From sequence record PZ445523.1: a DNA stretch of 64,000 nucleotides; one strand, given 5' to 3'. Position 1 is the first letter of the stretch. Every line of letters begins with the position of its first letter. The translations under genes were made by a program, and so were the position numbers. Under the pieces are notes generated by a model. That model saw only the letters and a list, made by a program, of their open reading frames with translations, ran no database searches and had not been told where the DNA came from. This DNA comes from a phage. Positions 1,335 through 24,777 of this stretch are shown here, in pieces.

Positions 1335-1367
1335 AATTTCCTCATTCAAGTTTTAGTGTAAATTATA

Positions 1368-1385
1368 AAGGGCCGAAGCCCTTTA
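1368..1385 (-). terminator. UUCG-tetraloop hairpin between genes 45 and 44
   Basis: Minus strand GGGC-UUCG-GCCC stem-loop followed by U-rich tract. Confidence 0.6.
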
Positions 1386-2072: not shown

Positions 2073-2127
2073 GTAATTTCCTTCAATTCAAATGAGATTT
2101 AATTTTATAACTAATTTAATAAAGCAA

Positions 2128-2517
2128 TTAACGATTAAAATCAGCCGCAATTGTTTCCGCAACAATTTGTGCAGCAACAATTAGACGTTCATCTGCATTG
2201 CCGCAATAATCATCTTCAAGGCGTTCACCACATGAAGTCATAATAAATTTAGCACCGGCGTTTAGGGATTCTGCAGTATGTTTGCGCATTAGTTCAATCC
2301 ATTTATTACTTACTTCACGATCGATAGCTTCATAATACGCATGACGAGCAGGTGCAGATTTAATTTTGTTCTGAATAACTTCCATTGCGTTATCAGAAAG
2401 AGACAAAACCCATGCTCGACGAATTTTATTTTGGTTTTGTGGATTTGATTCAGAACGCACGTGTTTTGGCTGAATATCTTTTACATCAACAGTATAATTC
2501 ACAGTAATTTTAGTCAT
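2128..2517 (-). CDS. rpbA: RNA polymerase binding protein RpbA
   Basis: 129 aa, conserved position between 45 and 46. Confidence 0.6.
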
Positions 2518-2526
2518 AATACACCT

Positions 2527-2715
2527 TTAGTCATAATAATCAGTAACAGTCCAAGCTTCATTTCTATTGGACATTATTTTTGTATATTCTGCTTTAAATG
2601 CATTCTTAAGCATAGATTCAGTAACTATATGCTCTTCATTGGAAAAATTATTTCTCAGAATATATCGTTTTATTTCAGGAATAGTTAATAGATGCTGTCC
2701 AGTTGAATATTCCAT
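2527..2715 (-). CDS. Hypothetical small protein (45.2-like position)
   Basis: 62-aa ORF in the 45-46 intergenic block. Confidence 0.4.
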   Translation of the reverse strand: MEYSTGQHLLTIPEIKRYILRNNFSNEEHIVTESMLKNAFKAEYTKIMSNRNEAWTVTDYYD

Positions 2716-2770
2716 GTTTTTCCTCCATAGAGATTATACTCTAATAAATTAAAGCATAATCTCTTATAAA

Positions 2771-4453
2771 TTAAACCATTACAGTAAATCGACCAACTTT
2801 CTTCATTTGAAGATGCTGACCGTATGCTTGCGGGTCATGGTCTCTATGCGAAATAACAAAAACATTAGTATTTTTTAAACTATCTAAAATAGTTGAAATA
2901 GCTTTTACACCTTCAACGTCGGTCGCTGAATCAAAAACTTCATCAAGAATTAGTGTGTTTATTTTAACACCTGAAACTTTTTCAGCAATATCACGCCAAG
3001 TAAATAAAAGAGCAATATCAATTCGTGCTTTTTCACCTTGACTGAATGAAGCATAACTAAAATCTTCGCGACCACGGGATTTAATTGTCTCATTAAATTC
3101 TTCATCTAATGTAAACACATAATCCGCTTCCATTATTTTAAGATAATGGTTAATCTGCTTATTAAATAATGGAATGTACTTTTTAATAATAGCACCTTTA
3201 ATACCAGAATCTTTGAGCATATCAGTCAAAATTCCTCGGTGGTATTTTTCCATTACTAAATTAGTTTTTGTCTTAACAATTTTATCAAGTTCTTCTTGAA
3301 GCAGTGCTATTTCATCAGCATGGTCAATAAACTCAGAAGATGCTTTTTCTATAGCCGCTTTAACTTTTTTAGCTTTATCTACCGTCGTGATTAGAGATTG
3401 CTTTTTATTGCGAATATCATTTGCCAACGACTGTTGGGTTTTAATATTATCTCGGTATTCATCAACAAGAACTTTTAAATTATCACGATGTGTTGAAAGC
3501 TGTTCAAACGAATGCGTACATTCAGAAACTTTATCTTTAATTTTAGAAACAACTTTATCACCGGAACTTAATTGTGACAAGCAGGTTGGACATAATCCAC
3601 CTTCGTGATACATATTAATGACTTTATTATACGAGTCAATTTTTGATTTAATTAAAACTGCTTCTTGACCGATTTTATTAAATGCATCAGTCGGGTCTTC
3701 ATCTAAAACAATATTAACTAATCTTTCGTTAGCTTCTTCTATTTCCGATTTTAGCGTTCTAGCTTCTTTTGCCAAATCATCATACATATTTTGCAGACGA
3801 GTAAGGTTGTCACCCGTTAATTTTTTCTGGCGTTCAACGTTATCATTATATATTTTAATTTGTTGGATAATACTATCTTTTTTAACATCAAGCACTTGGT
3901 TCTGCGAATTTAATTCACGTATTAGTGCTTTATTAAGCTTATCCATTTCAGCTAATGTTCCTACCTCAAGCAGGTCTTCCACAAGCTTTCTTCGCGCAGG
4001 GGTCGACAAACCCATGAAAGGGGTATACCCTGCTGTACCAAGGACAACAATCTGCTTGAAACTGGCATATGACATTCCGATAAGCTGTTCAAATTCTGCT
4101 TGGAAATCTTTACTGCTGGCAGATTCATTAAGACGTGTACCGTTAACGGTGATTTCGAAAACGTTTGGTTTTTGTCCTCTTTTGATATAGTACTTTTTCT
4201 CATCATATTCCATCCACAGTTCAACTAAAAGTTCTTTCTTATTTGTGCTGTTTATTAATTGGCCTTTCTTTACATCACGAAATGGCTTGCCAAAAAGCCC
4301 AAATGTGATGGCTTCCAACATAGTAGACTTACCACCGCCATTTCGTCCAGTAATAAGAGTTTTTTGAACCTTATCTAATTGAATGTCAATAGGATTTCCA
4401 CCTACTGACATTATATTTTGATACCTAACTCGGTTTAGTTTAAAATTCTTCAC
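2771..4453 (-). CDS. 46: Recombination endonuclease subunit gp46 (Rad50/SbcC-like)
   Basis: 560 aa; Walker A GRNGGGKST, long central coiled coil with CPTC zinc hook, D-loop LILDEVFD. Confidence 0.9.
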   Translation of the reverse strand: MKNFKLNRVRYQNIMSVGGNPIDIQLDKVQKTLITGRNGGGKSTMLEAITFGLFGKPFRDVKKGQLINSTNKKELLVELWMEYDEKKYYIKRGQKPNVFEITVNGTRLNESASSKDFQAEFEQLIGMSYASFKQIVVLGTAGYTPFMGLSTPARRKLVEDLLEVGTLAEMDKLNKALIRELNSQNQVLDVKKDSIIQQIKIYNDNVERQKKLTGDNLTRLQNMYDDLAKEARTLKSEIEEANERLVNIVLDEDPTDAFNKIGQEAVLIKSKIDSYNKVINMYHEGGLCPTCLSQLSSGDKVVSKIKDKVSECTHSFEQLSTHRDNLKVLVDEYRDNIKTQQSLANDIRNKKQSLITTVDKAKKVKAAIEKASSEFIDHADEIALLQEELDKIVKTKTNLVMEKYHRGILTDMLKDSGIKGAIIKKYIPLFNKQINHYLKIMEADYVFTLDEEFNETIKSRGREDFSYASFSQGEKARIDIALLFTWRDIAEKVSGVKINTLILDEVFDSATDVEGVKAISTILDSLKNTNVFVISHRDHDPQAYGQHLQMKKVGRFTVMV

Positions 4454-8867: not shown

Positions 8868-9137
8868 TTATCTAAGTAAGCAGTATGCTTGGAACACTTT
8901 CTCCATCATCTTTTTAAATTCATGAATATCTATGTAATGATCATTAATATCAGCGCGATATAAAAAGTCTAAAAACTTTTTATGGGTATTAGAATATTTA
9001 CTTCCAGTTAATTCAGAAACATGGCTTTCCCAATATCCAACACCAGTTTTATTTGGGAAAAATGAAATTTTCATGTATTGGTCAACATAGAAAATACCAA
9101 AATTTTCAATAGCAATAGAAATATTAATTAATTTCAT
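8868..9137 (-). CDS. Hypothetical protein
   Basis: 89-aa ORF. Confidence 0.4.
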   Translation of the reverse strand: MKLINISIAIENFGIFYVDQYMKISFFPNKTGVGYWESHVSELTGSKYSNTHKKFLDFLYRADINDHYIDIHEFKKMMEKVFQAYCLLR

Positions 9138-9349
9138 ACATTCATCAACTTAGCCGCTTCAAGAGCTGCATCTAGTGAATCAAACTGGTCAACGTATTCA
9201 ATCAATTCGCCGTAATTGGCATATAACCACCATTGGCTAAATTCATACTCAAGGATGAATCCATTTCCTTCAATTTGAGTTAAACCAATGCCGTTTGTAT
9301 TTACTTCATATCCGGCAAGACGCAAATCGTTAATAAGAGCTTCGTTCAT
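9134..9349 (-). CDS. Hypothetical protein
   Basis: 71-aa ORF, stop/start overlap with neighbour. Confidence 0.4.
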   Translation of the reverse strand: MNEALINDLRLAGYEVNTNGIGLTQIEGNGFILEYEFSQWWLYANYGELIEYVDQFDSLDAALEAAKLMNV

Positions 9350-9358
9350 AATTATACC

Positions 9359-9679
9359 TTAGTAATTTTCAGGTCTGCAAATTTTTTTCTTGCGTTGATT
9401 TTTCATGCGACGAATAGTTTTATCGGAAATTTCATGCTTTTGATAAGCTTTAGATTCTACACCAAAAGCTTTAACATCAAATTCTGACAAGATATATTGA
9501 ACCAACAATTCACGGATAGTGTTGCGTCCAATCTTCTGATCATTCTGTTTCATCGTCTGATGAAGCTCTTTTTCCCATTTATCCAAAATTTGAGGAGTTA
9601 CAATATCGCCTTTTTCTAGTAAAGAAACTACTTTATCATATGCGTAAGAATTGATGGCGTTTTTAATTTGAATAGTCAT
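9359..9679 (-). CDS. Hypothetical protein
   Basis: 106-aa ORF. Confidence 0.4.
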   Translation of the reverse strand: MTIQIKNAINSYAYDKVVSLLEKGDIVTPQILDKWEKELHQTMKQNDQKIGRNTIRELLVQYILSEFDVKAFGVESKAYQKHEISDKTIRRMKNQRKKKICRPENY

Positions 9680-9717
9680 ACATTATCCTCAATTGCGTTA
9701 AAATTTTATTATCCAAA

Positions 9718-9733
9718 AAGGGCCGAAGCCCTT
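9718..9733 (-). terminator. UUCG-tetraloop hairpin
   Basis: AAGGGC-UUCG-GCCCTT followed by U-tract. Confidence 0.55.
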
Positions 9734-9932
9734 AGCTAAACTTTTTGGCACCCTTCCAGCCTTCGTACATCATTGCGGCTGATATTAATATTGCTCCTGA
9801 GCAACTTGAATATTTGTGATTCCAAAACCAGTTTAGAAAAACTTCGTCATCAATACCTTGGGCTATCATATTTTCAAAGAACTGACGACGAGCTTCGGCA
9901 ATTCGCTGCGATAATTTAGATTCAGGATTCAT
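9732..9932 (-). CDS. Hypothetical protein
   Basis: 66-aa ORF followed by a hairpin. Confidence 0.35.
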   Translation of the reverse strand: MNPESKLSQRIAEARRQFFENMIAQGIDDEVFLNWFWNHKYSSCSGAILISAAMMYEGWKGAKKFS

Positions 9933-10072
9933 TTAAATTTTCCAGTTACCGTTTTCATCAATAAATTCAATCCAGTCATTTACTGACCACTTAGTTGTAT
10001 CACCTTTTTGGAGTAACATTTAAAGTGTATAACCCCTGCTTAAAAAGCATTCGTTTGATATTCATATTTTCC

Positions 10073-10411
10073 TCAGCTGTAACGATAACACTCGTTTGAT
10101 TTACGTTTAGCAACTCGTTGAGATGTATTATAATCTAATTCATCGTCGATGTAAACATCTTTTTTCAACTTTCTCACTTCATTACGTAATTGACGATTTA
10201 ATTCATTCTTAACCTCTGAATCAACACCTCGCATACGTCGCCATTTATCTGAACGAAAAATGTTTTCAACCATATCTTTATGACTTACACCATCAGGAGC
10301 TTTACGCTTTCCGAAATAGTCATAATCACGTACTTTTAAATCTTTACGACGATACGTTTTACCCATGGAGTTTAATTTCCTTAGCAACTGAACTAAATAC
10401 AGCACGGTCAC
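10073..10411 (-). CDS. Hypothetical basic protein
   Basis: 112-aa ORF, K/R-rich; start uncertain. Confidence 0.35.
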   Translation of the reverse strand: MTVLYLVQLLRKLNSMGKTYRRKDLKVRDYDYFGKRKAPDGVSHKDMVENIFRSDKWRRMRGVDSEVKNELNRQLRNEVRKLKKDVYIDDELDYNTSQRVAKRKSNECYRYS

Positions 10412-10541
10412 AAATCATCTGTTTATGTAACTTAAGTATAAGATAATAAACTTCAAAACCGTTTACATAAGTAACACGAACAACATTACCATTAATAAAA
10501 TAATATTGTCCCCTTTTAATTTCTTTATCAACCACAACCAT
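10359..10541 (-). CDS. Hypothetical protein
   Basis: 60-aa ORF immediately downstream of an early promoter. Confidence 0.35.
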   Translation of the reverse strand: MVVVDKEIKRGQYYFINGNVVRVTYVNGFEVYYLILKLHKQMICDRAVFSSVAKEIKLHG

Positions 10542-10571
10542 ATCAAATCCTCAAAGGCAATTCATATGTCA

Positions 10572-10601
10572 ATAATACCACAGTTTGAACTTGTTGTAAA
10601 C
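10572..10601 (-). promoter_or_regulatory. Early promoter (T4 early consensus type)
   Basis: Minus strand reads GTTTAC, 18 nt ending TGG, then TATTAT. Confidence 0.6.
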
Positions 10602-10682
10602 AACTTTGTGAAAAATATTTTAGGGAATGACAAGAAGGGAACGATAGCTTAGAATGGTAATATACAGAATGCGAGAAAGAAA

Positions 10683-10695
10683 GGCCCAGAGGGCC
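10683..10695 (-). terminator. Short GC hairpin downstream of nrdH-like gene
   Basis: GGCCC-TCT-GGGCC. Confidence 0.4.
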
Positions 10696-10699
10696 CGTC

Positions 10700-11040
10700 T
10701 TAATCTTCTATGATATCTCTATCATATCCAAGTGAAATGAGAGTTTCTTTGAAGTGTTTAATGTTCTTTTGTCTAGAATCATTAATGAAAATGACTGGAT
10801 AACGAATGTTAAGAGATGTGAATCCAGCGCGTTTAGCAAGAGATACAATCAGTGGACGATCATACTCAATCTTACCGTTATTTGTAAGAACTTTATAGAA
10901 AGTAAAAGGAGCATTGAGCTCCTTTAGAAGTTTTGTAACTGATTGACATCCAGGACAACGACCTACTTCATCTGGAATTCCATAGACTTCAATCTTATTC
11001 TTTAAGTTCGAGTTTTGTTCCACGAGAAATAATTCCTTGG
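10700..11040 (-). CDS. nrdH: NrdH-like glutaredoxin
   Basis: KIEVYGIPDEVGRCPGCQSV redoxin motif with CxxC; true start is unclear (no in-frame ATG nearby, possibly GTG). Confidence 0.5.
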
Positions 11041-11306
11041 TAAGCCCAATAAGGAGGATTAACAGAATCATCACCAGAATTTTCTTCAGGGAAATAAACC
11101 TGGATAACGAAGCCGGATTCATCAAAGGTGAAATAAGTAGTAGGCAGTTCACCTAACAAATCGGCACGAGCGTTGATTTCTTCGAGGTCTTGTTCACGTC
11201 CAGCCCAGAAGCTTGGGTTCAGACTACATTCATAGAAATAATAGTCATTACCGAACATATCAAAACCATTCCAACTCTCTACTACATACCGCTCAAAACT
11301 AATCAT
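10995..11306 (-). CDS. Hypothetical protein
   Basis: 103-aa ORF. Confidence 0.4.
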   Translation of the reverse strand: MISFERYVVESWNGFDMFGNDYYFYECSLNPSFWAGREQDLEEINARADLLGELPTTYFTFDESGFVIQVYFPEENSGDDSVNPPYWAYQGIISRGTKLELKE

Positions 11307-11308
11307 AA

Positions 11309-11524
11309 TTAAGCCTTTTTATCAAGAACAGCATTCAGCTTGTTAGTAATTTTATCCAGACGCTCATTGAACTCACTAGAAGATAAGCCCTTTTCTGGAG
11401 AAATTAAACTAATAACGAAAAATACAACAATAAAAGGAATAAGAAAAATAGCTCCAACTGCCATAAACAGAAAGAATGTTACAGTTGTAAGAAAATCAGC
11501 TAAACCTTTACGAAATTTATACAT
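11309..11524 (-). CDS. Hypothetical small membrane protein
   Basis: 71 aa with one hydrophobic helix. Confidence 0.4.
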   Translation of the reverse strand: MYKFRKGLADFLTTVTFFLFMAVGAIFLIPFIVVFFVISLISPEKGLSSSEFNERLDKITNKLNAVLDKKA

Positions 11525-15044: not shown

Positions 15045-15365
15045 TTATAGCGTAATCCATTCTCGTACTGTCTGAATTACTACACGTTCTCGAAGCTCAA
15101 CCAGTTCAACGGTAGGAACTGCATAATACCAGTCAGAATGGTAAGAACCTGAGCGAGATTCATTTACAGAAACATATACGTGGTGTTTTGGGCTAAAGTA
15201 AATTACTCGACGATATTGGCATTTGCCTTGTTGAGTCCATTCTTCGGATTCAATCTGAATAAGATAGTCGGAAAAATCGAAATCATAGTTTTCCGAAAAT
15301 GCATCATGGTCTTCGATGATTTCACTCAGAACTGCATCAACATCTAATTTATTTTCAATAGTCAT
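15045..15365 (-). CDS. Hypothetical protein
   Basis: 106-aa ORF. Confidence 0.4.
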   Translation of the reverse strand: MTIENKLDVDAVLSEIIEDHDAFSENYDFDFSDYLIQIESEEWTQQGKCQYRRVIYFSPKHHVYVSVNESRSGSYHSDWYYAVPTVELVELRERVVIQTVREWITL

Positions 15366-15376
15366 TTTTTCACCAA

Positions 15377-15586
15377 TTAATTTCGCAATTTATTAAGTTC
15401 TTCATAATCAATCCAGGATTCTAATCCTGATGGCAAATCAGATTCAATTTCCCAAAGAAGCTCTTCAATTTTCTGAAGACGATCTAGTTCTTCAGCTGGA
15501 ATAGTAACCATTGATGGAGTTCTTGATACACTAATATCGTAAATCATATTTACCCCAGTTTGACCATACAATCGCCGTATTTCCAC
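15377..15586 (-). CDS. Hypothetical protein
   Basis: 69-aa ORF. Confidence 0.35.
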   Translation of the reverse strand: MEIRRLYGQTGVNMIYDISVSRTPSMVTIPAEELDRLQKIEELLWEIESDLPSGLESWIDYEELNKLRN

Positions 15587-15765
15587 TTAGAAATAGACTT
15601 TTCACCATTAGAATAATAAACTTCGAGTTTAGCACGATTATTTTTAATTTGAATAACCTTGGCTGTCATCAAAGTTCCATACCCATAGTAAACTGCAACT
15701 TCATCACCTACATATACCGCGCTTCCGCGGTAATCATGGATATAATCAGTTCCTTCGAGAATCAT
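15550..15765 (-). CDS. Hypothetical protein
   Basis: 71-aa ORF. Confidence 0.35.
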   Translation of the reverse strand: MILEGTDYIHDYRGSAVYVGDEVAVYYGYGTLMTAKVIQIKNNRAKLEVYYSNGEKSISKWKYGDCMVKLG

Positions 15766-16025
15766 TTAAAGTATTCCCGCAATTGGTCAAATCCACCAAT
15801 ATGACTTCCATCAGGAGCAAATACCTGAGGCATTGTCAAGCCGATTTGAGTATCACGACCTAGTTTCGTTAGAAGCTCAGCAATTTTCTCATCATCAAAA
15901 ACACCTTTTTCCGGCATAATGTTGATAAATTCAAACGGCTGTTTCTTCACGGTCAAAAGACGTTTTGCATTATCGCAATACACGCATTTGTGGATGTTGC
16001 TATCATAACCATATACTTTAAACAT
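15762..16025 (-). CDS. nrdC: Phage glutaredoxin (thioredoxin)
   Basis: 87 aa with VYCDNAK active site; matches T4 NrdC as I recall it. Confidence 0.9.
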   Translation of the reverse strand: MFKVYGYDSNIHKCVYCDNAKRLLTVKKQPFEFINIMPEKGVFDDEKIAELLTKLGRDTQIGLTMPQVFAPDGSHIGGFDQLREYFK

Positions 16026-16026
16026 A

Positions 16027-16272
16027 TTATTCCTTAATTCCTAGTACTTGTTTGAAGGTCTCAGTATAATCGGAGTATTGACCGGTTTGTTCTTTATATT
16101 TGTTCATAATATCATAAACTTCTAAACGCATATTATTATACGAACGGGTTAAAGCGGATTTCAATACTGAATAACTATCCGGAAATTTACCATGTTCTTT
16201 ATAATAGGCCAGAGTTAATTCACGGACCGCTTTATCAGCAGTCTCAAGATATTCTTTACGCTTTGCCATTTT
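16027..16272 (-). CDS. Hypothetical protein
   Basis: Likely start [15 protein letters not shown]; the upstream part of the ORF-track frame is probably not coding. Confidence 0.4.
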
Positions 16273-16570
16273 CTTCTCGCTCAAATCGGTGTTTACAATG
16301 GCGACATTTATAACGAAGATTATTAGTCTGCCAATGGACCAATTGCACCTGTTCAGTTCCACATTCAGGGCAATTAGGAACGTTTTTAGAAGCCCTTTCG
16401 CGACGTTCAATCATGACCATTACAGAATCCCAATTAACAGGAGGGCTATAATCATCACAACCATGAATCTTTCCACGCATTTCCAGATCGTCTTCTTCAC
16501 CAGCCATAATAATTTTAATTAAACTGGAATTACTTGAAGCTGCAATGTCTTCTAATAGACGCTTTTTCAT
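16256..16570 (-). CDS. Small zinc-ribbon protein
   Basis: 104 aa with CPECG...CRHCKH four-cysteine motif. Confidence 0.5.
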
Positions 16571-17493
16571 TTCAATACCTCAATAGCATTACGTAAACCA
16601 TTTGCTTTGGCGGTTAAAGCCTTAAGAACTTTAGTATGCTCTTCAATTTGTTTTTCAACTTCAATCAAACGAGCATTGAGATATTCGCGTTCTTCTTTCA
16701 TAGTATCATTTCCATGATTGGATTTTGGTGTAGGTTTAAATTCACTAGGGTCCTTTAATTTAATAACAAATTTAGTTTCAAACAGTGAAAGACCATAATT
16801 CGTATTATCATCAAAGGATTTGACTACATCCATATCAGATAATAACACGCGCAAATTATAAGCCAAAGAACTAATAGTTTCATTGTGTTTATTAGCTTCG
16901 CGTGGTTTCATATACGGAAGATTTTTATATATCTCATGCGGAGCGCAAACGATAATTGACAATTCAAATTGTCCATTCTGGGACGATGGAGTGAATTTAG
17001 CCGTAACCCAGTCTTTTACATTCACATTAATAGTACGGTTATCACCATGACAAAACAGTCTACGAGAATGCTTAAAAAGCATATTCACGTTATTATTGAA
17101 TTCGTGTGAAAATTCACTAGCAAATTTTTCTTTACTATCTTTAGAAAACCATTCTTCTAAATAAGTTCTTTTCACGTCGTTAATAATATTAAATGTAACA
17201 ACATTAGCATTTGATACATTAGTCTCAATGTAGCTTGGATACATAAATTTTTTAACATTATTAACAGCTATCACAGAAGATAGTAATCGGGAACGTTTGA
17301 ACCACTCGAGCAAAGAACCAAGAGAATGTGAATACGCATTTTGTGTATCTTTACAAATATGGTTTTCCCATCCAATATAGTCTAAAAAATCACGAAGAAT
17401 ATTATTGATTACTGCTCTGTGTCCGATCTGATAATTACGGTGTTTAGTAATAAGACTGTCAAAATAATCAATATAATGTTTACGAGTTTTCAT
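16567..17493 (-). CDS. Paralog-family protein A with C-terminal coiled coil
   Basis: 308 aa; central MDVV motif shared with the ORF at 18605; C-terminal heptad-rich tail. Confidence 0.6.
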   Translation of the reverse strand: MKTRKHYIDYFDSLITKHRNYQIGHRAVINNILRDFLDYIGWENHICKDTQNAYSHSLGSLLEWFKRSRLLSSVIAVNNVKKFMYPSYIETNVSNANVVTFNIINDVKRTYLEEWFSKDSKEKFASEFSHEFNNNVNMLFKHSRRLFCHGDNRTINVNVKDWVTAKFTPSSQNGQFELSIIVCAPHEIYKNLPYMKPREANKHNETISSLAYNLRVLLSDMDVVKSFDDNTNYGLSLFETKFVIKLKDPSEFKPTPKSNHGNDTMKEEREYLNARLIEVEKQIEEHTKVLKALTAKANGLRNAIEVLK

Positions 17494-17545
17494 GTTCTTC
17501 TCACTTGGTTAATGGTTTATACTCCGAGCCATCCTTGGCTTTAAA

Positions 17546-18547
17546 TTACTTAATTAACTGTAAAGCTTGTTCAAGACGATCCAGGCGATTAACAGATTCT
17601 TCCCAAATCCTTTTAGCCTGCTCATATTCTTTCTGTGCTTTATTAGAAATTTCTAGAACTTCTTTATAAGCTTTTTCTAGTGCAATAACTTCTGGACGAA
17701 TTTCTATCGGTTCAGGTGAATCGTCAAGACATTCCATTAGTTCCTCAAGGGTAGTTTCTTCTTTAGGAGTATTCACAATTTCATCACATTTTTGCTGGTA
17801 AATTTCTTTATCAGTCGGTGAGTACGCACACTTTACTTCACGAAGACTAACTACAATTTTATATCCTTCCCAACCGCATATATTCTTAAAAGGATAAGTA
17901 TGAATATTTTCTACTGTTTCCATACAAAGTAATGCAGTCTCTAACTGACGAGTTATATCACTAGCAATTGAGAAAAATTTATTAATGTTCTTTTGATTAG
18001 CTTCTGGTGTAAAAAATTCATAATTCACAAAAATAGCTGCTTTATTTTTATCAAGTTCATATTCTTTTATGATAATCATATCAGAAGCCAAAGGATGAAT
18101 TTGACGATAATCGCCATAACATAATTTAGAAGCTGATTTTAGAATTTGCTTCTTGAAAAGTCTAAAATTACTAACCCAACGACGAGTAAAAATATTCTCA
18201 GGGTCTTCTTTATTATTAAGATGATAAGAATTAACATCACCGAACCAGCTGTATCCTACTACATTTTTAGTTCGTTTAATTTCTTTCCCAAATTTACTAA
18301 GAATATCTTGATTAACTAAATATGAAAGAAGACGAGACTCTTTAAAGGTTTTCTTGATATTATCTTTATCTACACGGCTAGAAATTTTACGAATTTCATG
18401 AATAAATTTAGCAGAAGAAACAATACCTGCATCAACACTATTGAGCCATTGATTGATAATAGAAAGAACGCTATTTTGGCCAAACATCGGTATAGCTTTA
18501 CCATCAATAACGCTATTGAATGATTTGATATATTCGTTACGAGTCAT
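17546..18547 (-). CDS. Paralog-family protein B with C-terminal coiled coil
   Basis: Likely start MTRNEYIKSF; the first 17 ORF-track codons translate the promoter; C-terminal coiled coil. Confidence 0.55.
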   Translation of the reverse strand: MTRNEYIKSFNSVIDGKAIPMFGQNSVLSIINQWLNSVDAGIVSSAKFIHEIRKISSRVDKDNIKKTFKESRLLSYLVNQDILSKFGKEIKRTKNVVGYSWFGDVNSYHLNNKEDPENIFTRRWVSNFRLFKKQILKSASKLCYGDYRQIHPLASDMIIIKEYELDKNKAAIFVNYEFFTPEANQKNINKFFSIASDITRQLETALLCMETVENIHTYPFKNICGWEGYKIVVSLREVKCAYSPTDKEIYQQKCDEIVNTPKEETTLEELMECLDDSPEPIEIRPEVIALEKAYKEVLEISNKAQKEYEQAKRIWEESVNRLDRLEQALQLIK

Positions 18548-18575
18548 AATAATCTCCTCAGTAGAAAGTAAGAAC

Positions 18576-18605
18576 ATTATACCACATCCTTGTGGCAAAG
18601 TAAAC
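18576..18605 (-). promoter_or_regulatory. Early promoter
   Basis: GTTTAC, 18 nt, TATAAT; upstream of paralog B. Confidence 0.65.
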
Positions 18606-19627
18606 TAGTTCAGTGCATTTAGTGCATTGTTCAGTTTAGAACGTTGCTTTGCCAGATTTTGAACCCTTGACTGCGCTTGTTCTAACACCTTTTCAGCTTC
18701 TAGCACTTCATTGGTCGCTTTAACGAGTTCATCATCTACTGCCTTAAGAGACTTCTCAATCGCATCAGCGTGCCATTTTTCTACAGGTTTAAAATTTGAA
18801 TTTTCAGTAGGAAGAAAATTCACTTTATTAAGTTTACATGCATCTATATTGCTTGAGCTATACATCCAAAATTTAGGATCGTTTGAGGAGTAATTAGATG
18901 AATTTAAGGTATCTTGCACTTCCTGCTTTTTCTCTTGAACAACTTCGTCCTTTCTCAAAAATTCATATTTAAATGAAACGACCATATCAAGTTCATATGT
19001 TGTTGTGTCTAATTTAAATCGTTCGAAATGCCGCGAAATCCTAGACTGAACACCAGCAACAACATCCATATACTTAAATGCTTCTGTCAACTGTGATTTA
19101 AGGCATTCACAAATTGAAAGAGAATTTTTTGTATTAGGTTTAAAGCTAATTCGTGCAGTTCTATTATTTTCTTTTAACGGTCTTACTTCCATCTGAAGAG
19201 TATAACCATCAAATTTAAGATTCTTTAAGTTAATATCAGAACCTTTTAATCGACTAGCAGTAGACAAAATTTGCTTTAATTGTTTACGGAATAAAGCAAT
19301 AAATCTCCATTCAAGACGATAATGATTTGGATTAAAAAATCCAGTTGATAGATCGGTCTTACTTTGACCAACGCCTCGAACAAATAGAGGATTTTTATAA
19401 TCAATAGTTTTACAGAAATCAACGAGCTGCTCGCGAGCAGTCATTTGTGTAATATACCCTGATTCATTAAAATTACGCACCCATTCACTGCTGTTCAGAT
19501 GTTTAAAGGCGTGAATGGAACAATTAACTTTATTAAGGTCTAAATTATTTTCACACAAAAATGTCATAACATCACGATTATAGCTGGCATTACGAACCAT
19601 ATCTTCAATTTGAGAACGAGTTTTCAT
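18605..19627 (-). CDS. Paralog-family protein C with C-terminal coiled coil
   Basis: 340 aa; starts MKTR like protein A; KYMDVVAGV central motif. Confidence 0.6.
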   Translation of the reverse strand: MKTRSQIEDMVRNASYNRDVMTFLCENNLDLNKVNCSIHAFKHLNSSEWVRNFNESGYITQMTAREQLVDFCKTIDYKNPLFVRGVGQSKTDLSTGFFNPNHYRLEWRFIALFRKQLKQILSTASRLKGSDINLKNLKFDGYTLQMEVRPLKENNRTARISFKPNTKNSLSICECLKSQLTEAFKYMDVVAGVQSRISRHFERFKLDTTTYELDMVVSFKYEFLRKDEVVQEKKQEVQDTLNSSNYSSNDPKFWMYSSSNIDACKLNKVNFLPTENSNFKPVEKWHADAIEKSLKAVDDELVKATNEVLEAEKVLEQAQSRVQNLAKQRSKLNNALNALN

Positions 19628-19635
19628 GGTGTTCC

Positions 19636-20550
19636 TTAAGATTTAAGTAAATCAACAATTTTAATTAACTTTTCACGCTCAGATTTAGCTTTACTACTCA
19701 GTCCAGATAGTCTGAAAATTTCATCGTCATATTGTTGAATAGAAATATTCAGCTCTTCAATTTGCTTATTAAAATAATCAATTTGCTCAGAATGTTTTTC
19801 GTTACTACGAACTGGTGCAGGTTTTGTAGGCAATTTAGTTGAACTGGATTCATCCGGGCGATAAATTAAAATACAATTTGAACCAATCGGGCATTTAGCA
19901 CCAGACACATATTCTAATGTTCCAGCTTCTTTTAAAACTTCAAAAGCTAAACAGAGATGATGCCCCATATTAACATAATCTGTAGAGCGAGCTCTGATGT
20001 AATAATCATCTCCACGAGTACTAAATTTAAAGCATTTAAGGTCTTCTGTATTATTAGTTTTAAAAATCATTTGTTTATCTAGACCTTTAGCTAATCGAGC
20101 GCCTAATGCTAATAATCGTCGTTGATTTTCCCACAAATCCGCAATCATTTGGTCGAATGATAATTTCGGCATTAGTCGGCCATAAAGGTCATATCCTTTA
20201 TTATAATTACGAAGGATTTCACTCGCGTTAATACGAGACAATGCTCCAATTTTATTAAGGGCTTTCATAATGCGATTAGATAAACTCATTCCAGACCCAT
20301 TTGTTCGCTGTAAATGTTTTTCTAATCCAAATCCAATATCAACTTTAAATTTATCTAAAATTTCAGCATGAACATCTCTGTCAATAACATTCAAATCCAA
20401 AGTTGGGTTAAATCTATGAAAAAATTTATCTGGCTCTCCACGACGAAATACAGTCCATTCATTCATCATTTTTTTATTAACTAAGGATTTAATTACTGCA
20501 TTGACATTATTAATTACTACTGACATATTTTCCTCACTCAATTTTACCAA
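19636..20550 (-). CDS. Paralog-family protein D with C-terminal coiled coil
   Basis: 304 aa; same size class and C-terminal coiled coil. Confidence 0.55.
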   Translation of the reverse strand: MVKLSEENMSVVINNVNAVIKSLVNKKMMNEWTVFRRGEPDKFFHRFNPTLDLNVIDRDVHAEILDKFKVDIGFGLEKHLQRTNGSGMSLSNRIMKALNKIGALSRINASEILRNYNKGYDLYGRLMPKLSFDQMIADLWENQRRLLALGARLAKGLDKQMIFKTNNTEDLKCFKFSTRGDDYYIRARSTDYVNMGHHLCLAFEVLKEAGTLEYVSGAKCPIGSNCILIYRPDESSSTKLPTKPAPVRSNEKHSEQIDYFNKQIEELNISIQQYDDEIFRLSGLSSKAKSEREKLIKIVDLLKS

Positions 20551-20935
20551 TTACGCGGAATAAGATTGAACAGACTATATAAGTACCACATATAGATTGA
20601 ACTAATGCCATTCCAAAGAACCAAACAATATTATCAAACCATGTCTGTTTTACGTCGAAAGGACGTAAACTTACAGTAATATTATCACCTTTTTCTATTG
20701 ATGAATACATCTCTGGGGAAATATATTCACTAAATCTATAACCGTCTTTGAGTTCATATACGGCAATAAACGATAAACTAGACCCCTTTCCTTGAGTTCC
20801 TGTAAGGGTATTAACTACAGGAACATCATAATCTTTATAATGCATATAATCATTAATTGCGTAATAACCATATGCAATTACTATACATAAACAACATATC
20901 AATAAATTCAATCTTTTAATTATCAACTGTTTCAT
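20534..20935 (-). CDS. Small membrane protein
   Basis: 133 aa with N- and C-terminal hydrophobic helices; overlaps the start of protein D. Confidence 0.5.
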   Translation of the reverse strand: MKQLIIKRLNLLICCLCIVIAYGYYAINDYMHYKDYDVPVVNTLTGTQGKGSSLSFIAVYELKDGYRFSEYISPEMYSSIEKGDNITVSLRPFDVKQTWFDNIVWFFGMALVQSICGTYIVCSILFRVIGKIE

Positions 20936-20990
20936 AATAATCTCAATTAAAAGGGCTTAGAACCATTATACCATCCTTGGTATAAAGCGG

Positions 20991-21518
20991 TTATGCGAGT
21001 ACCGTCTTTAACCGTTCTTCAAACTTCCGAAGAGTATTCTGGCGTTCAGCTCTTTGCTTTTTGTAAGTTTCAATACGCTCTGAAATGAGAGTGTATCGTT
21101 CATTTACTGATTCTTTCATAAAATCAGGAATTTCACGAGAAGCTTTAATCTCGTCAAATTTATCAATAACAGCTTGCTCTTCAGCAATTAAGTTATCATA
21201 CATCAAAATATCTTTCTTGATGAACTCAATATCTTCTTGAGTTACACGAGATAACTTAGATGCTTTATCCTTTTTGTACTGTTCGTTAGTATCACGAGAC
21301 CAGTGTAATGTACGATTTTTATTCGTATTCTTGTAAATTTCTACAATACCAATCTCATCAATAATAACGATCCAATTCCAACGGGATTTGTAAATTTGTC
21401 CTCCATCAACAGTGATTTCACCTCCGATTGAGATGTCATTAAAGAACTTGCTTTGTGCTTCAGATTTAAATTTACCATCGTTGTAATTTACCAGGTTGAA
21501 AATATCTTTAGCGTTCAT
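20991..21518 (-). CDS. Hypothetical protein with C-terminal coiled coil
   Basis: Likely start MNAKDIF; upstream ORF-track extension is the translated promoter. Confidence 0.5.
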   Translation of the reverse strand: MNAKDIFNLVNYNDGKFKSEAQSKFFNDISIGGEITVDGGQIYKSRWNWIVIIDEIGIVEIYKNTNKNRTLHWSRDTNEQYKKDKASKLSRVTQEDIEFIKKDILMYDNLIAEEQAVIDKFDEIKASREIPDFMKESVNERYTLISERIETYKKQRAERQNTLRKFEERLKTVLA

Positions 21519-21546
21519 TTTGTGTTCCTCCGTAGTTGATAGTTGT

Positions 21547-21576
21547 ATAGTACCACAGAGGAACGGTCTTGTAAAC
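21547..21576 (-). promoter_or_regulatory. Early promoter
   Basis: GTTTAC, 18 nt, TACTAT. Confidence 0.6.
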
Positions 21577-21578
21577 AA

Positions 21579-21893
21579 CTAAAAGAAACTTCTTTCACAA
21601 TTTTTTCCACTGAACCACGCGCTCACTGCTTTCTTAGTCTCAGGAGCAGTATTATCCATAAACCATTCAAAGGCAGCCTTTTTATGATTCTGGAGGGCTT
21701 CTCGGGCTTTAATCTGCTCACGGTCTATTAACACTAACATATGAGCCTTTCTTGTCACCATGGGCTTCTTATGATTTTTTGAATACTCCCAATCATTTGT
21801 CCATCGCATCGTTGTTGCGAACTGGAATACAGCTTCTTTAATTTTAGTTTCGTAAATTTCACGAGCCTTTGAGTATAACATCACTACCTCCAT
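21579..21893 (-). CDS. Hypothetical protein
   Basis: 104-aa ORF. Confidence 0.4.
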   Translation of the reverse strand: MEVVMLYSKAREIYETKIKEAVFQFATTMRWTNDWEYSKNHKKPMVTRKAHMLVLIDREQIKAREALQNHKKAAFEWFMDNTAPETKKAVSAWFSGKNCERSFF

Positions 21894-21963
21894 TTACCAG
21901 TTTAATTCTAGTCATCTTTTTGATGGCAGTCCATATAATCTATTTCTGAACTGCCTTTTTGTC

Positions 21964-22683
21964 TTATGATTCTTCTAAATGTCTTTTCTGAAAAGTTGAT
22001 ACCATACTACGATAAGGTTCATTTGGATACCCGTGTTTTATAGCTTCCTTTGTAAATTTTCTCCATCCGTATTTAGTTTCTTTCCAAAGCTCGAATAATT
22101 CATCTTCATACTGCCATATAGTTAAATGAGAACGCTTTGCAGCTTTAATTCCATTAATGTGCTTTTCTTTTACTGTAGGATTGCTTAGTGTCTTTTTAAT
22201 AATATTACTAACTTTTCTAACAAAAGCTGGGTCCTTATATCGTTGTGAAGTTTTTATTGAAGTGTTTAATTTAGCTTCCGGCGTGGATGTGACCTCTTTC
22301 ATCTTTTTCTTCATATGCTCTATATGATTAGGATTTTTCCATAAATTTATAGAATGCTTTTTACATTTTATCCTAGTTTCATCTGCAACCTTTCCTCCTT
22401 CACCCCCATATGACAGGTTAACGCAGTTTTTTCCATATTTCAATTTACCTGCCATGATATATAATATTTCGGCTTGTACCATTTTATCATAATTATCAAA
22501 AACTTCTAAAACCGTTTTTGATAATATATGGTCATTTGACACTTTTACACGTTCTATATAATTTCCACTACCAACATACGAATCATTGATGTTATTAGTT
22601 ATATGTCGACCATAATAGTATTTCTTAATACCTGTCTTTAAATTTAATATTTCAGTTTTATAGATAGTAAAATATTTTTTCAT
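21964..22683 (-). CDS. Seg-like GIY-YIG homing endonuclease
   Basis: N-terminus YYYGRHITNNINDSYVGSGNY and later NLSYGGEGG align with the SegB ORF in this window (KIYIGVHSTENLDDGYMGSG, NLKLGGEGG). Confidence 0.6.
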   Translation of the reverse strand: MKKYFTIYKTEILNLKTGIKKYYYGRHITNNINDSYVGSGNYIERVKVSNDHILSKTVLEVFDNYDKMVQAEILYIMAGKLKYGKNCVNLSYGGEGGKVADETRIKCKKHSINLWKNPNHIEHMKKKMKEVTSTPEAKLNTSIKTSQRYKDPAFVRKVSNIIKKTLSNPTVKEKHINGIKAAKRSHLTIWQYEDELFELWKETKYGWRKFTKEAIKHGYPNEPYRSMVSTFQKRHLEES

Positions 22684-23648
22684 TTTAATAATACCGTTTC
22701 AGCAATTTCTTCCCAATGGTTTTTGTCGGTCATAATAAAGTCAGCAAGATAAAGTGCAGTACGCAGTGAAACATTGCGTAAACGATTAACATTGACTTTC
22801 ATCCATGATAATGCTTTATAAGTTTCTTCATCAGAAAGACCGCGCTTTTGCATCATGTCAGTTGAAAGAATAACATCTTCAACCCTGACCATAATTTCTT
22901 CATTAGTGTGAACACCCAAATCTAAATAAACTGAGCGGGACACTAATGCTTGTAAATGTGGAGCAAGTTTAGTACCACGGTCTAATTCGCGGTCAATATC
23001 AACGTTTGTGATAAAAACAATCGTTCCTTTAAATTCAAACTCACGCTCAATGCCTTTTTCTTCTAAGTAAGAAGATGCAGTGCTCCAGCAGACTTTACGG
23101 GTCTCTCCAGTGTCCAGAGCAGCTTTCAGAAGATTAAGAATGTCCATATCAGAGAAAACATCCACATCATCAATCAAAAGGACAGAATTCTCTTCACGAT
23201 TATTCCAAAGCTGTTCATAAAGACCGATACCAGAGATTTTACCATTAATGCTTTTATACTCAATGTATCCAATATCATTTGCTTTATTCAAAGCTTTATC
23301 TAAAGAATACGTTTTACCAATACCTGCCGCACCAGAGATAATTAATGAACGAATGTTTCCGTTAATAATACCATTCGTCATCATTCCCATAACATTAAAT
23401 CTTTTATTAATGCGGGTTTTCATATCTTCATATGATTCTTTAACTTCTTCAACTTTTACACCATCATATGAAATGTCTGATTTGTAAACCCAAACACCGC
23501 GACGTTTACCATCAATTTCAACAAAAACTTTACCGTCTCCTTGTGCATCTACCGGAGCATTATCTGGGAACCATTCGCCTAAGAGCTCAAAAGTTCCAGA
23601 AATTTCTTTACCGAAGTAGATACCCTTATTGATAGTTACAGTTTTCAT
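22680..23648 (-). CDS. AAA+ ATPase
   Basis: Likely start MKTVTINKG; Walker A ISGAAGIGKTYS, Walker B VLLIDDVD, sensor-like TNV. Confidence 0.7.
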   Translation of the reverse strand: MKTVTINKGIYFGKEISGTFELLGEWFPDNAPVDAQGDGKVFVEIDGKRRGVWVYKSDISYDGVKVEEVKESYEDMKTRINKRFNVMGMMTNGIINGNIRSLIISGAAGIGKTYSLDKALNKANDIGYIEYKSINGKISGIGLYEQLWNNREENSVLLIDDVDVFSDMDILNLLKAALDTGETRKVCWSTASSYLEEKGIEREFEFKGTIVFITNVDIDRELDRGTKLAPHLQALVSRSVYLDLGVHTNEEIMVRVEDVILSTDMMQKRGLSDEETYKALSWMKVNVNRLRNVSLRTALYLADFIMTDKNHWEEIAETVLLK

Positions 23649-23682
23649 TTTATTCTCCAAATCCGTATCAGTTGATAGTTGT

Positions 23683-23712
23683 ATAGTACCATAAAGCTTT
23701 ATGCTTGTAAAC
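23683..23712 (-). promoter_or_regulatory. Early promoter
   Basis: GTTTAC, 18 nt, TACTAT; upstream of the AAA+ ATPase gene. Confidence 0.6.
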
Positions 23713-23742
23713 AACTTTGTGAAAAATTTTTGAAATAAAAAA

Positions 23743-23762
23743 GGGGAGCCCGAAGGCTCCCC
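23743..23762 (-). terminator. Intrinsic terminator after the nucleotidyltransferase gene
   Basis: GGGGAGCC-UUCG-GGCTCCCC followed by a T-run on the minus strand. Confidence 0.7.
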
Positions 23763-23763
23763 A

Positions 23764-24777
23764 TCATTTATAATAACTTCGGTGGTTTTCAAGATAGACC
23801 TTCTCAAGGAAGTCATCCCAGAAACTCATGTCTACTTTTTGCTGCATACCGTTCTTAGAAGCTTCAGTAGATGCTGCTTCTACTTGATCGACCACATCTT
23901 CCAAAAACTCTTGAACCGTTTTAAATGGATGTTTACCCAACTTCACGTCGAGAATAAATGGAGCATCTTGGAGTGGATAAATCAAGTCGCCAGTTTTGTA
24001 AATTTCCAATAGTTGAAGTCCACCACGACAAGCATGGCTCAGAGCTTTCCAGTCAATACCTTCATTGGCTTCAGCCTTACGAGCACGTTCACCGTATTCA
24101 GCATCTAATTTGTTCAGTGACTGCTTAAGCTCAATAAGAGAAAGCGTTGTCTGATATTTACGACCCAACACAGTGTAGAACGTTTGTGGGCCTGTTTTCT
24201 CATGATTATGGAACACCCATTCACAGAATTCGTTTTCTGGAAGACGATGCTTAATATCTTCAACTTTAGTGCGACGCTGCTTAATAGAACCATCTTCTTG
24301 GTAATCAACCCATTGCTCAGGGATTTGATTAACTACTTTCAATACATCACGTAATGCAGCCAAACGAGAACCCTTGACACCGTATTTAGAAGCTTGCTTG
24401 CGGACATATCCTAAATATGATTTCATGTTAGTCGTATAAAAACGAGAACGGTTGTCTTGAATAAACTTCCACACATCAGGCAAATCAGATTTAACCACTA
24501 GTTCAGGTGGAGTGTGAAGCATATCTAATGCTACAGTTTCACCATCTGCTGCTAATTTAAAGAAATATTTAAGACTGTATAGTTCATGGTCAATATCATC
24601 TTTAGTGTTTTTAGATGATGTGTTGTTAGTGTTTTTACTCATATGCTCTTTAACATTTCCGATAAGAATATCGCGAGCAGGAGGAACAAAGATTTCTTTA
24701 AAATCTACATCAGATTCTGGGGTAGAAGTTCCATAAAGATGACTACCAAAATAGCTTTTCATTACTGTTTTCATCAT
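23764..24777 (-). CDS. Nucleotidyltransferase (Pol-beta / minimal NTase fold)
   Basis: N-terminal FGSHLYGTSTPESDVDF matches the GS-x(9-13)-DxD nucleotidyltransferase signature; 337 aa. Confidence 0.6.
   Translation of the reverse strand: MMKTVMKSYFGSHLYGTSTPESDVDFKEIFVPPARDILIGNVKEHMSKNTNNTSSKNTKDDIDHELYSLKYFFKLAADGETVALDMLHTPPELVVKSDLPDVWKFIQDNRSRFYTTNMKSYLGYVRKQASKYGVKGSRLAALRDVLKVVNQIPEQWVDYQEDGSIKQRRTKVEDIKHRLPENEFCEWVFHNHEKTGPQTFYTVLGRKYQTTLSLIELKQSLNKLDAEYGERARKAEANEGIDWKALSHACRGGLQLLEIYKTGDLIYPLQDAPFILDVKLGKHPFKTVQEFLEDVVDQVEAASTEASKNGMQQKVDMSFWDDFLEKVYLENHRSYYK

Follow-up and report, generated by a model that had tools for sequence, protein, structure and literature searches.

NrdC.3–NrdC.6 of T-even phages: diverged tandem paralogs that include the Dsr1 antagonist NrdC.5 and are candidate early inhibitors of host immune sensors

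Introduction

A 64,000-nucleotide stretch of phage DNA (sequence record PZ445523.1; below, the window means this whole 64-kb stretch) comes from a T2/T4-like phage (95–96% nucleotide identity). Within it lie four adjacent minus-strand genes, nrdC.3, nrdC.4, nrdC.5 and nrdC.6, whose products are the subject of this report. On balance, we consider it probable that NrdC.3–NrdC.6 arose from one ancestral gene as tandem copies that have since diverged, and that they act as early inhibitors of host immune sensors. T4 NrdC.5 disarms the defence protein Dsr1, and membership of the same family makes NrdC.3, NrdC.4 and NrdC.6 candidates for a comparable role.

The genes themselves are T4 biology, and one paralog and two neighbouring genes already have published anti-defence functions. 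Because the block is thus homologous to T4 proteins that have been characterised, the claim of novelty made for it in a preliminary description of this DNA falls; its remark that no function is evident holds for inspection of the sequence only, since the function of T4 NrdC.5 has been published. What appears to be new is the placing of the Dsr1 antagonist in a family present in one, three or four copies, a relationship and an increase in copy number that are apparently undescribed in the open-access literature. The finding refines existing knowledge and does not define a new kind of system.

Homology of the four proteins

The four genes, which can be designated paralogs A to D, are nrdC.3 (16567..17493, 308 amino acids (aa)), nrdC.4 (17546..18547, 333 aa), nrdC.5 (18605..19627, 340 aa) and nrdC.6 (19636..20526, 296 aa), all on the minus strand and each at the position of its T4 namesake. 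The preliminary description had listed seven open reading frames (ORFs) here; all are present on the minus strand and correspond one-to-one with T4 nrdC.2–nrdC.8, and their coordinates and lengths stand, save for the start of nrdC.6. That gene, drawn as 19636-20550 from a TTG codon at 20550, is real, but its true start is the ATG at 20526 (giving 296 aa), where every orthologue begins MS… and which is preceded by the Shine-Dalgarno stretch GAGTGAGGAAAA.

Pairwise BLASTP within the block yields a sole match, between NrdC.3 and NrdC.4 (24.5% over 200 aa, E 0.004), and is too insensitive for the remaining pairs. Family databases separate the proteins in a similar way. PHROGs recognises three families, with NrdC.3 and NrdC.4 together in phrog_1435 and NrdC.5 and NrdC.6 in two others, and Pfam likewise splits the family three ways (PF26897, PF23882/DUF7235 and PF26899). 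NrdC.5 matches DUF7235 (PF23882) along residues 1-340 with 371.2 bits against a cutoff of 30, no match to DUF7235 is seen in NrdC.3, NrdC.4 or NrdC.6 at E ≤0.1, and in the protein database relatives of NrdC.3 bear PF26897 and relatives of NrdC.6 bear PF26899.

Profile–profile comparison is more revealing. Family alignments were built from nine related loci and database matches, later enriched with new representatives, and the resulting profiles compared by hhalign. NrdC.3 and NrdC.4 are linked with 97% probability (E 1e-11, 214 columns) and, with enriched profiles, NrdC.4 and NrdC.5 with 96.5% (E 9.6e-10, 250 columns) and NrdC.3 and NrdC.5 with 94% (E 1.5e-7, 234 columns). A merged NrdC.3+4 profile aligns with NrdC.6 at 80% probability (E 1.4e-5, score 45.5) through 196-200 collinear columns. 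As controls, a reversed NrdC.6 alignment scored 18 against the NrdC.3+4 profile and 40 column-shuffled versions scored no more than 23, while the unrelated neighbours NrdC.1, NrdC.8 and NrdC.9 reached no more than 17 (NrdC.9 no more than 14) against every paralog profile. On these scores NrdC.1 and NrdC.9 were rejected as family members, as was NrdC.8 as a truncated fifth paralog, although it is helix-rich; the further coiled-coil protein that the preliminary description had grouped with the four is thus present as a gene but unrelated to their family.

Proteins that bridge the four sequences come from phages with a single family member, namely Marfa gp080 (315 aa) and IME523 gp085 (335 aa), each of which is followed by an overlapping nrdC.2 homologue. 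When 1.84 billion representatives were searched by HMMER with a profile of NrdC.3, NrdC.4 and NrdC.5, only 17 clusters matched, which marks the family as narrow. One of the proteins recovered is of the Marfa gp080 type (P0212), a Klebsiella Marfavirus protein with relatives in Enterobacter phage IME523, which is matched by the NrdC.5, NrdC.4 and NrdC.3 profiles (E 5e-15, 2e-7 and 9e-5, respectively). IME523 gp085 matches the NrdC.6 profile with 27.8 bits (E 6e-10) over residues 146-333, a segment that takes in the second of five conserved motifs, a beta/alpha unit, a PVPV linker and the coil. It also matches an NrdC.5 profile stripped of Marfa-type sequences (22 bits from the linker and coil, 5 bits from motifs 1-2) and, at motif 2, the NrdC.3+4 profile. 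Entered alone into hhalign, gp085 reaches 94% against NrdC.6 and 96% against merged NrdC.3+4+5 (244 columns), and its motif 2 (EFNYNWRMILTLGSRLCVGSSRELEFKT) is intermediate between those of NrdC.3 (EFNNNVNMLFKHSRRLFCHGDNRT) and NrdC.6 (LWENQRRLLALGARLAKGLDKQMIFKT).

The five motifs occur in one order in all four window proteins, with motifs 1-5 starting at residues 64, 128, 214, 252 and 300 in NrdC.3, at 67, 124, 202, 282 and 325 in NrdC.4, at 52, 109, 180, 279 and 332 in NrdC.5 and at 89, 127, 191, 234 and 287 in NrdC.6. When the four profiles were run against all ORFs of at least 150 aa in the window and 16 further loci, they matched these genes only, and cross-family hidden Markov model (HMM) matches were seen on the window ORFs.

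Judged from these profiles, NrdC.3, NrdC.4 and NrdC.5 are certainly homologous and NrdC.6 is very probably homologous to them. The proposal of four tandem paralogs made in the preliminary description is thus supported by profile comparison, controls and bridge proteins, in the form of very diverged copies of one gene; an all-against-all comparison at the profile level links all four, with moderate support for NrdC.6. It might be argued that NrdC.6 is no true paralog and that all it has in common with the other three is a comparable length, a helix at the C-terminus and a place beside them. Single-family hhalign comparisons with NrdC.6 are not significant (probability ≤14%), Pfam and PHROGs both hold it as a separate family and its evolutionary rate (see below) is strongly unlike that of the others. 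We nonetheless think this highly unlikely, given that the merged profile produces a collinear alignment scoring twice the best null and that gp085 both matches the NrdC.6, NrdC.5 and NrdC.3+4 profiles and carries an intermediate form of motif 2.

Conserved features and structure prediction

The resemblance of the N-termini noted in the preliminary description is confirmed: MKTR opens both NrdC.3 and NrdC.5, as it had said, and MTR opens NrdC.4, and across 19 aligned NrdC.3/.4/.5 proteins from four genera T3 and R4 never vary. An extended form of this N-terminus, M(K)TR..(E/H)Y (codons 17482-17493, 18536-18547 and 19616-19627), is kept across the NrdC.3, NrdC.4 and NrdC.5 families of the same number of genera; Marfa gp080 has it and NrdC.6 does not. 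Its conservation may reflect protein function or a translation-initiation signal, either being a candidate. The central helix motif also proves to be shared, as KYMDVVAGV of NrdC.5 and SDMDVVKSF of NrdC.3 occupy the same alignment columns, together with LLCMETVENI of NrdC.4. Residues invariant across the families are few and mostly hydrophobic.

Each of the four had been credited with a heptad-rich tail. Using a crude heptad score, the top-scoring segment of NrdC.3, NrdC.5 and NrdC.6 does fall within the C-terminal 60 residues, around three standard deviations over shuffles, but the score of NrdC.4 is weak (8.5 versus 7.9±0.7 in shuffles). Taking alignments, heptad score and motif order together, a C-terminal heptad-rich helix with an L..A...LK end is found in the paralog family.

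No enzyme or catalytic domain was found in any of the four paralogs by searching Pfam, NCBIfam and PADLOC, which gave no meaningful domain matches except DUF7235 for NrdC.5, and no nucleic-acid-binding domain was detected by the Pfam and NCBIfam scans. The isoelectric points (pI) of the four range from 6.9 to 9.2, that is, neutral to basic. Sequence-profile and fold searches of the PDB returned nothing relevant, with no PDB relative and no solved structure that matches.

An AlphaFold2 (AF2) model of NrdC.6 from a 27-sequence multiple sequence alignment (MSA) is usable, with a predicted local distance difference test score (pLDDT) of 77.5 and a predicted template-modelling score (pTM) of 0.66. 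The modelled protein is helical over residues 1-151, followed by a hairpin (166-179), a helix (187-200) and a second hairpin (205-222); a low-confidence linker (228-242) then leads to a helix-turn-helix made up of helices 243-272 and 278-295. The NrdC.5 model reached a pLDDT of just 38 and was left out of fold searches. Its MSA is shallow because a word-indexed search recovered only relatives of at least 75% identity, and a mixed alignment added proteins of NrdC.3 and NrdC.5 type and none of NrdC.4 type. The low-confidence NrdC.5 model has the same order of elements as that of NrdC.6 (helices, a hairpin at 145-161, a long helix at 169-202, a linker and a terminal helix), and the terminal helix (284-339, 56 residues) is its sole moderately confident part.

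Searching BFVD with the NrdC.6 model found its own family and uncharacterised Straboviridae proteins of ~300-335 aa (E 3e-7 to 1e-3, TM score 0.36-0.48) from IME523, Pectobacterium phage PM2, Acinetobacter phages fHyAci03, Acj9 and Acj61 (two proteins), Klebsiella phage Mineola and Yersinia phage fHe-Yen9-01. The IME523 match (335 aa, E 3e-7) is probably gp085, the only protein of that length within the IME523 stretch fetched. In Acj61, tandem genes encoding 330- and 304-aa proteins (p120 and p121) lie just past nrdC, and their lengths fit the two BFVD matches from this phage. As sequence relatives p120 and p121 were rejected (HMM E ≥0.005, hhalign ≤10%); any relationship to NrdC.6 would rest solely on predicted structure. 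At 1229-3938 and 9028-11322 of the Acj61 locus (L010) lie genes for nicotinamide phosphoribosyltransferase and ribose-phosphate pyrophosphokinase, as well as a tandem duplicated pair of 372-aa genes annotated 'putative copy'.

Published functions and the anti-defence region

The function of one member of the family has been established in T4. A T4 deletion clone fails on strain ECOR17 owing to Dsr1, a SIR2-domain NADase that acts in defence, and T4 nrdC.5 supplied in trans suffices to make MG1655 with dsr1 infectable again (Srikant, Guegler & Laub, eLife 2022, PMC9391042). The window NrdC.5 is identical to the T4 protein at 301 of 340 residues (89%), so differing at 39, and shares its locus and length. 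E. coli Dsr1 has a sensor domain in common with Avs7 and is triggered by a Drexlerviridae major capsid protein (PMC13581612).

Several neighbouring genes have comparable activities. In the HIDEN-SEQ preprint (10.1101/2025.11.20.689424), Septu is reported to be inhibited by T4 nrdC.1 and Druantia type III by bas37_0203, these being the only genes from the region named in its main text. The latter, from Bas37 (phage KarlGJung, MZ501089), sits in the nrdC.8 position and is identical to the window NrdC.8 at 174 of 175 residues. In addition, the OLD defence protein is inhibited by T6 Gp49.2 (PMC13096335). The region from gene 49 to mobD is an early-transcribed accessory region working as an anti-defence island, because NrdC.5, NrdC.1, the NrdC.8 orthologue and Gp49.2 each counter one defence. 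The published experiments on NrdC.5, NrdC.1 and the NrdC.8 orthologue also bear out the anti-defence part of the guess that the preliminary description had made about the block. We found no paper, within the open-access literature searched, that assigns a function to nrdC.3, nrdC.4, nrdC.6 or nrdC.7 or describes the four-gene family.

An orthologue of Gp49.2 is encoded at 15045-15365 (minus strand) in the window. The nrdC.1 gene (16027..16269, minus strand, 80 aa) lies just outside the block; its product is 79% identical to T4 NrdC.1 and just 78-79% identical to the T4, Bas37 and Bas42 versions taken together, so NrdC.1 is fast-evolving too.

Distribution and evolution

Copy number varies by genus. 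Four copies are present in six Tequatrovirus genomes (the window included), three in eight Mosigvirus, Dhakavirus and Gaprivervirus genomes and one each in Marfa (Marfavirus) and IME523 (Kanagawavirus). The order of the genes is constant, 6-5-(4 and/or 3)-nrdC.2, and all copies are intact full-length ORFs in 14 genomes of four genera. In phage records as a whole, tblastn (E ≤0.01) finds NrdC.6 in 742, NrdC.3 in 658, NrdC.5 in 591 and NrdC.4 in 554.

In every genus examined, single-copy phages included, the last paralog overlaps nrdC.2 by 1-4 nt, as seen in VR7, IME08, JS09, RZ, IME523 and Marfa. In the window nrdC.2 (16256..16570, minus strand, 104 aa), the ATG overlaps the nrdC.3 stop codon (ATGA), the junction reading GAGGTATTGAAATGA. 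The NrdC.2 profile matches IME523 gp084 and Marfa gp079 with E 1e-23 to 1e-25. Such an overlap points to translational coupling of nrdC.2 with the last gene of the array in all cases examined. NrdC.2 (phrog_1474) is the four-cysteine zinc-ribbon protein of the preliminary description, an assignment that agrees with its CPEC…CRHC sequence and with sub-threshold zinc-ribbon matches in both Pfam and NCBIfam. Of the two partners that had been proposed for the paralogs, NrdC.2 is indeed constant, but the position of the membrane protein NrdC.7 varies, nrdC.7 being missing in VR7 and IME08 and adjoining nrdC in Mosigvirus.

Evolutionary rates were estimated from amino-acid identity and the ratio of nonsynonymous to synonymous substitution rates (dN/dS) among the six Tequatrovirus genomes. 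NrdC.3 is 61-98% identical, with two allele classes (dN/dS 0.36), NrdC.4 88-94% (0.26) and NrdC.5 86-88% (0.26). NrdC.6, the most divergent paralog in sequence, is yet the most conserved among phages (97-99%, dN/dS 0.09). NrdC.8 to NrdC.11 are 98-100% identical (dN/dS 0.05-0.08). Variation in NrdC.5 is patchy, with residues 31-60 and 191-280 variable and 61-190 nearly invariant. We read the rates of NrdC.3, NrdC.4 and NrdC.5 set beside those of NrdC.8 to NrdC.11, the patchiness of NrdC.5, the allele classes of NrdC.3 and the uneven presence in phage records as signs that the family has diversified.

How far the function of NrdC.5 can be extended to its paralogs is the central question. A rival explanation accepts the paralogy but holds that NrdC.5 alone is an anti-defence protein, with NrdC.3, NrdC.4 and NrdC.6 having other early roles (in host takeover, or in some phage or host machine) or with NrdC.3 and NrdC.4 being drifting duplicates. 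The lack of a reported phenotype for these three in the open-access literature is what it would predict, as is the fact that only nrdC.1 and bas37_0203 are cited from the region in the HIDEN-SEQ main text. The near universality of NrdC.6 and the strong purifying selection on it point the same way, and the dN/dS values of 0.26-0.36 for NrdC.3, NrdC.4 and NrdC.5 also fit relaxed constraint. Against it, every copy is intact and full length in the 14 genomes, the variation in NrdC.5 is patchy and not uniform, and the flanking NrdC.1, NrdC.8 and Gp49.2 are all defence inhibitors. We therefore regard this explanation as rather unlikely and favour an anti-sensor role for all four copies.

The array itself also shows signs of exchange. 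Around 140 records carry an NrdC.3 at least 80% identical to the window protein and around 520 one below 80%; sampled full-length matches of this second class are 55-62% identical to the window protein. The two classes suggest replacement by recombination with a Mosigvirus-type copy. A 299-aa protein (P0056, on contigs of up to 167 kb) resembles NrdC.5 residues 146-272 in its residues 1-129 (87%) and NrdC.3 residues 136-316 of the second allele class in its residues 120-299 (86%), with the join at NKVN(M/F)L, indicating recombination inside the array that deleted nrdC.4.

Early-type promoter motifs

Two early promoters had been proposed to drive the block, and a T4-early-type motif is found at both sites. 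Within the window the motif GTTTAC-N15-TGGTAnnnT (≤1 mismatch) is matched 13 times against an expectation of 0.36, in each case on the minus strand, and two of these matches sit at exactly 18576..18605, upstream of nrdC.4 (GTTTACTTTGCCACAAGGATGTGGTATAAT), and 21547..21576, upstream of nrdC.8 (GTTTACAAGACCGTTCCTCTGTGGTACTAT). The first was also picked up in a generic sigma-70 scan, which was not enriched in the window (24 sites versus 27.6 in shuffles), so that only the T4-early-specific motif is informative. The 13 matches, spread over 10572-43245, chart where early promoters of the window probably lie. One of them, at 23683-23712, falls within the long ORF 22680-23816, and nrdC.10 therefore probably starts at 23648.

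Proposed mechanism

All four copies would share a common plan, in which an N-terminal helical region bearing two conserved helix motifs is followed by a small beta-hairpin/helix unit, a proline-containing linker and a C-terminal heptad helix ending L..A...LK. We propose that each paralog is a non-enzymatic, stoichiometric protein inhibitor, which, to judge from the promoter motif, would be made early, ahead of late proteins such as capsid. Each would bind one host immune sensor, the target of NrdC.5 being Dsr1, and binding would stop activation of the sensor. The C-terminal coiled coil may provide oligomerisation or avidity, and the variable segments of NrdC.5 (residues 31-60 and 191-280) may determine target specificity. 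Duplication and divergence would then have supplied several specificities, with NrdC.3, NrdC.4 and NrdC.6 addressing other sensors. Two other mechanisms were considered and rejected: DNA mimicry, on account of the pI values of 6.9-9.2, and enzymatic action, as Pfam and NCBIfam reveal no catalytic domains.

Several points weigh against this proposal. Among the four paralogs an experimental phenotype exists for NrdC.5 alone. The link of NrdC.6 to the family is the weaker one, as it is tied in only via the merged NrdC.3+4 profile and the bridge protein. NrdC.6 is, moreover, highly conserved and nearly universal (742 of 744 records), as would sooner be expected of a housekeeping protein than of one caught up in an arms race. 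This conservation is the chief mismatch with the proposal; NrdC.6 may be aimed at a conserved host target or may have another role. With the NrdC.5 model at a pLDDT of 38, a common fold of the paralogs is not demonstrated by structure, and the coiled-coil call derives from a crude heptad score, weak for NrdC.4, and AF2 helices.

NrdC.5 and its relatives could also act indirectly, by shielding or chaperoning the capsid trigger, by altering NAD+ metabolism or by acting with NrdC.2 on nucleic acid. Masking of the trigger is conceivable, the trigger of Dsr1 being a phage structural protein, and both the constant translational coupling of nrdC.2 to the last paralog and the neutral to basic character of the paralogs also count in favour of indirect action. 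Plasmid-borne NrdC.5 alone rescued infection, however, though the phage may have supplied NrdC.2; neither an enzymatic nor a nucleic-acid-binding domain was detected, and the early expression predicted from the promoter motif would come before the late capsid protein. Indirect action thus seems to us improbable, and direct binding of the sensor remains the mechanism that we prefer.

A bolder form of the direct-binding proposal can be put forward only tentatively. NrdC.3–NrdC.6 might constitute a modular sensor-blocker family, in which one ancestral inhibitor, still present singly in Marfavirus and Kanagawavirus, was duplicated in T-even phages. Every copy would now be directed at its own defence protein of the pattern-recognition kind, for instance Dsr1, an Avs7-like receptor or another sensor of conserved phage proteins. 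A common platform for delivery or oligomerisation could then be formed by the shared coiled coil together with the coupled NrdC.2, and related proteins of the same predicted fold in Acinetobacter, Pectobacterium and Klebsiella phages could act likewise in other hosts.

Whatever the fate of this extension, the family offers three counter-defence candidates that are cheap to test (nrdC.3, nrdC.4 and nrdC.6) and a natural specificity series for mapping sensor recognition, with the conserved core of NrdC.5 (61-190) set between its variable patches (31-60 and 191-280).

Neighbouring genes

The block runs from nrdC.2 to nrdC.9, the whole set on the minus strand, and matches the annotated T4T record gene for gene. 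The 6-kb query around it matched 744 phage records, the best being T2 (96.3% nucleotide identity), followed by RB32 and RB33 (95.4%) and T4 (95.2%). Gene 49 (endonuclease VII), pin and nrdC are also in the window, just downstream of the block. Plus-strand ORFs of the interval are short (≤77 aa) and all nested within minus-strand genes, and an Rfam scan of 15500-22500 found no RNA family.

Upstream of the paralogs, nrdC.7 (20534..20935, minus strand) encodes a 133-aa predicted membrane protein, annotated as such in the T4 record. Its two hydrophobic segments (Kyte-Doolittle peaks in windows starting at residues 1-11 and 103-111) bear out the two-helix membrane protein of the preliminary description. 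Beyond it lie nrdC.8 (20991..21518, minus strand, 175 aa), the orthologue of bas37_0203 that is outside the paralog family, and nrdC.9 (21579..21893, minus strand), encoding a 104-aa protein that matches Pfam DUF7203 (E 3e-15) and is unrelated to the paralogs.

Between nrdC.9 and nrdC.10 lies a 239-aa ORF (21964-22683, minus strand) with no Pfam match at 1e-3, where T4 is without a gene. In RB32, RB33 and BF15 the part that matches includes an annotated 'intron-like DNA endonuclease', so this is probably a mobile homing-endonuclease insertion. NrdC.10 (22680-23648, minus strand) has weak matches to AAA and nSTAND3-type NTPases, all under the Pfam cutoffs, and NrdC.11 (23764-24777, minus strand) gives a match to the family of RlaP nucleotidyltransferases (E 1.7e-11); both show 99% amino-acid identity among Tequatrovirus. 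On the other side, between 49.2 and nrdC (15377-15765, minus strand), two small ORFs of 69 aa and 71 aa (the latter DUF7205) take the place of T4 49.3. The shorter of the two products shows a weak resemblance, below the threshold, to the T7 Gp5.9 family of RecBCD inhibitors (E 5e-4, 20 bits versus a cutoff of 24.5).

Comparison with known systems

The closest known protein is T4 NrdC.5 (DUF7235/PF23882) itself, of which the window ORF 18605-19627 is the orthologue by position, length and identity. The window NrdC.3, NrdC.4 and NrdC.6, in contrast, are linked to it only by profile–profile comparison and bridge sequences. We propose a functional analogy with DSAD1 of SPbeta-like phages, which counters the SIR2 NADase DSR2, a defence protein that a structural protein of the phage activates. 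Profile and fold searches of the PDB showed no relationship of the paralogs to DSAD1 in sequence or structure, and NrdC.5 is only predicted to bind Dsr1.

Two other classes of phage counter-defence protein differ from the paralogs. DNA mimics of the Ocr/Arn type are strongly acidic, unlike the four paralogs, and the NARP1/2 enzymes of NAD+ reconstitution have catalytic domains, none of which Pfam or NCBIfam recognises in any of the four.

A further parallel lies in the anti-defence clusters of T-even phages, such as the dmd-tifA-adfA 'anti-TA island' (TA, toxin–antitoxin) and the group formed by gp49.2, NrdC.1 and NrdC.8/bas37_0203. These likewise consist of early, non-essential, fast-evolving, clustered genes of small to medium size, each directed against one host system. 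Most anti-defence proteins of T4-like phages have so far been found singly, and the family described here implies that T-even counter-defence repertoires can expand by tandem duplication, besides gene acquisition: whereas the known clusters are assemblies of unrelated single genes, this one comprises four adjacent copies of one ancestor, in a copy number that differs by genus.

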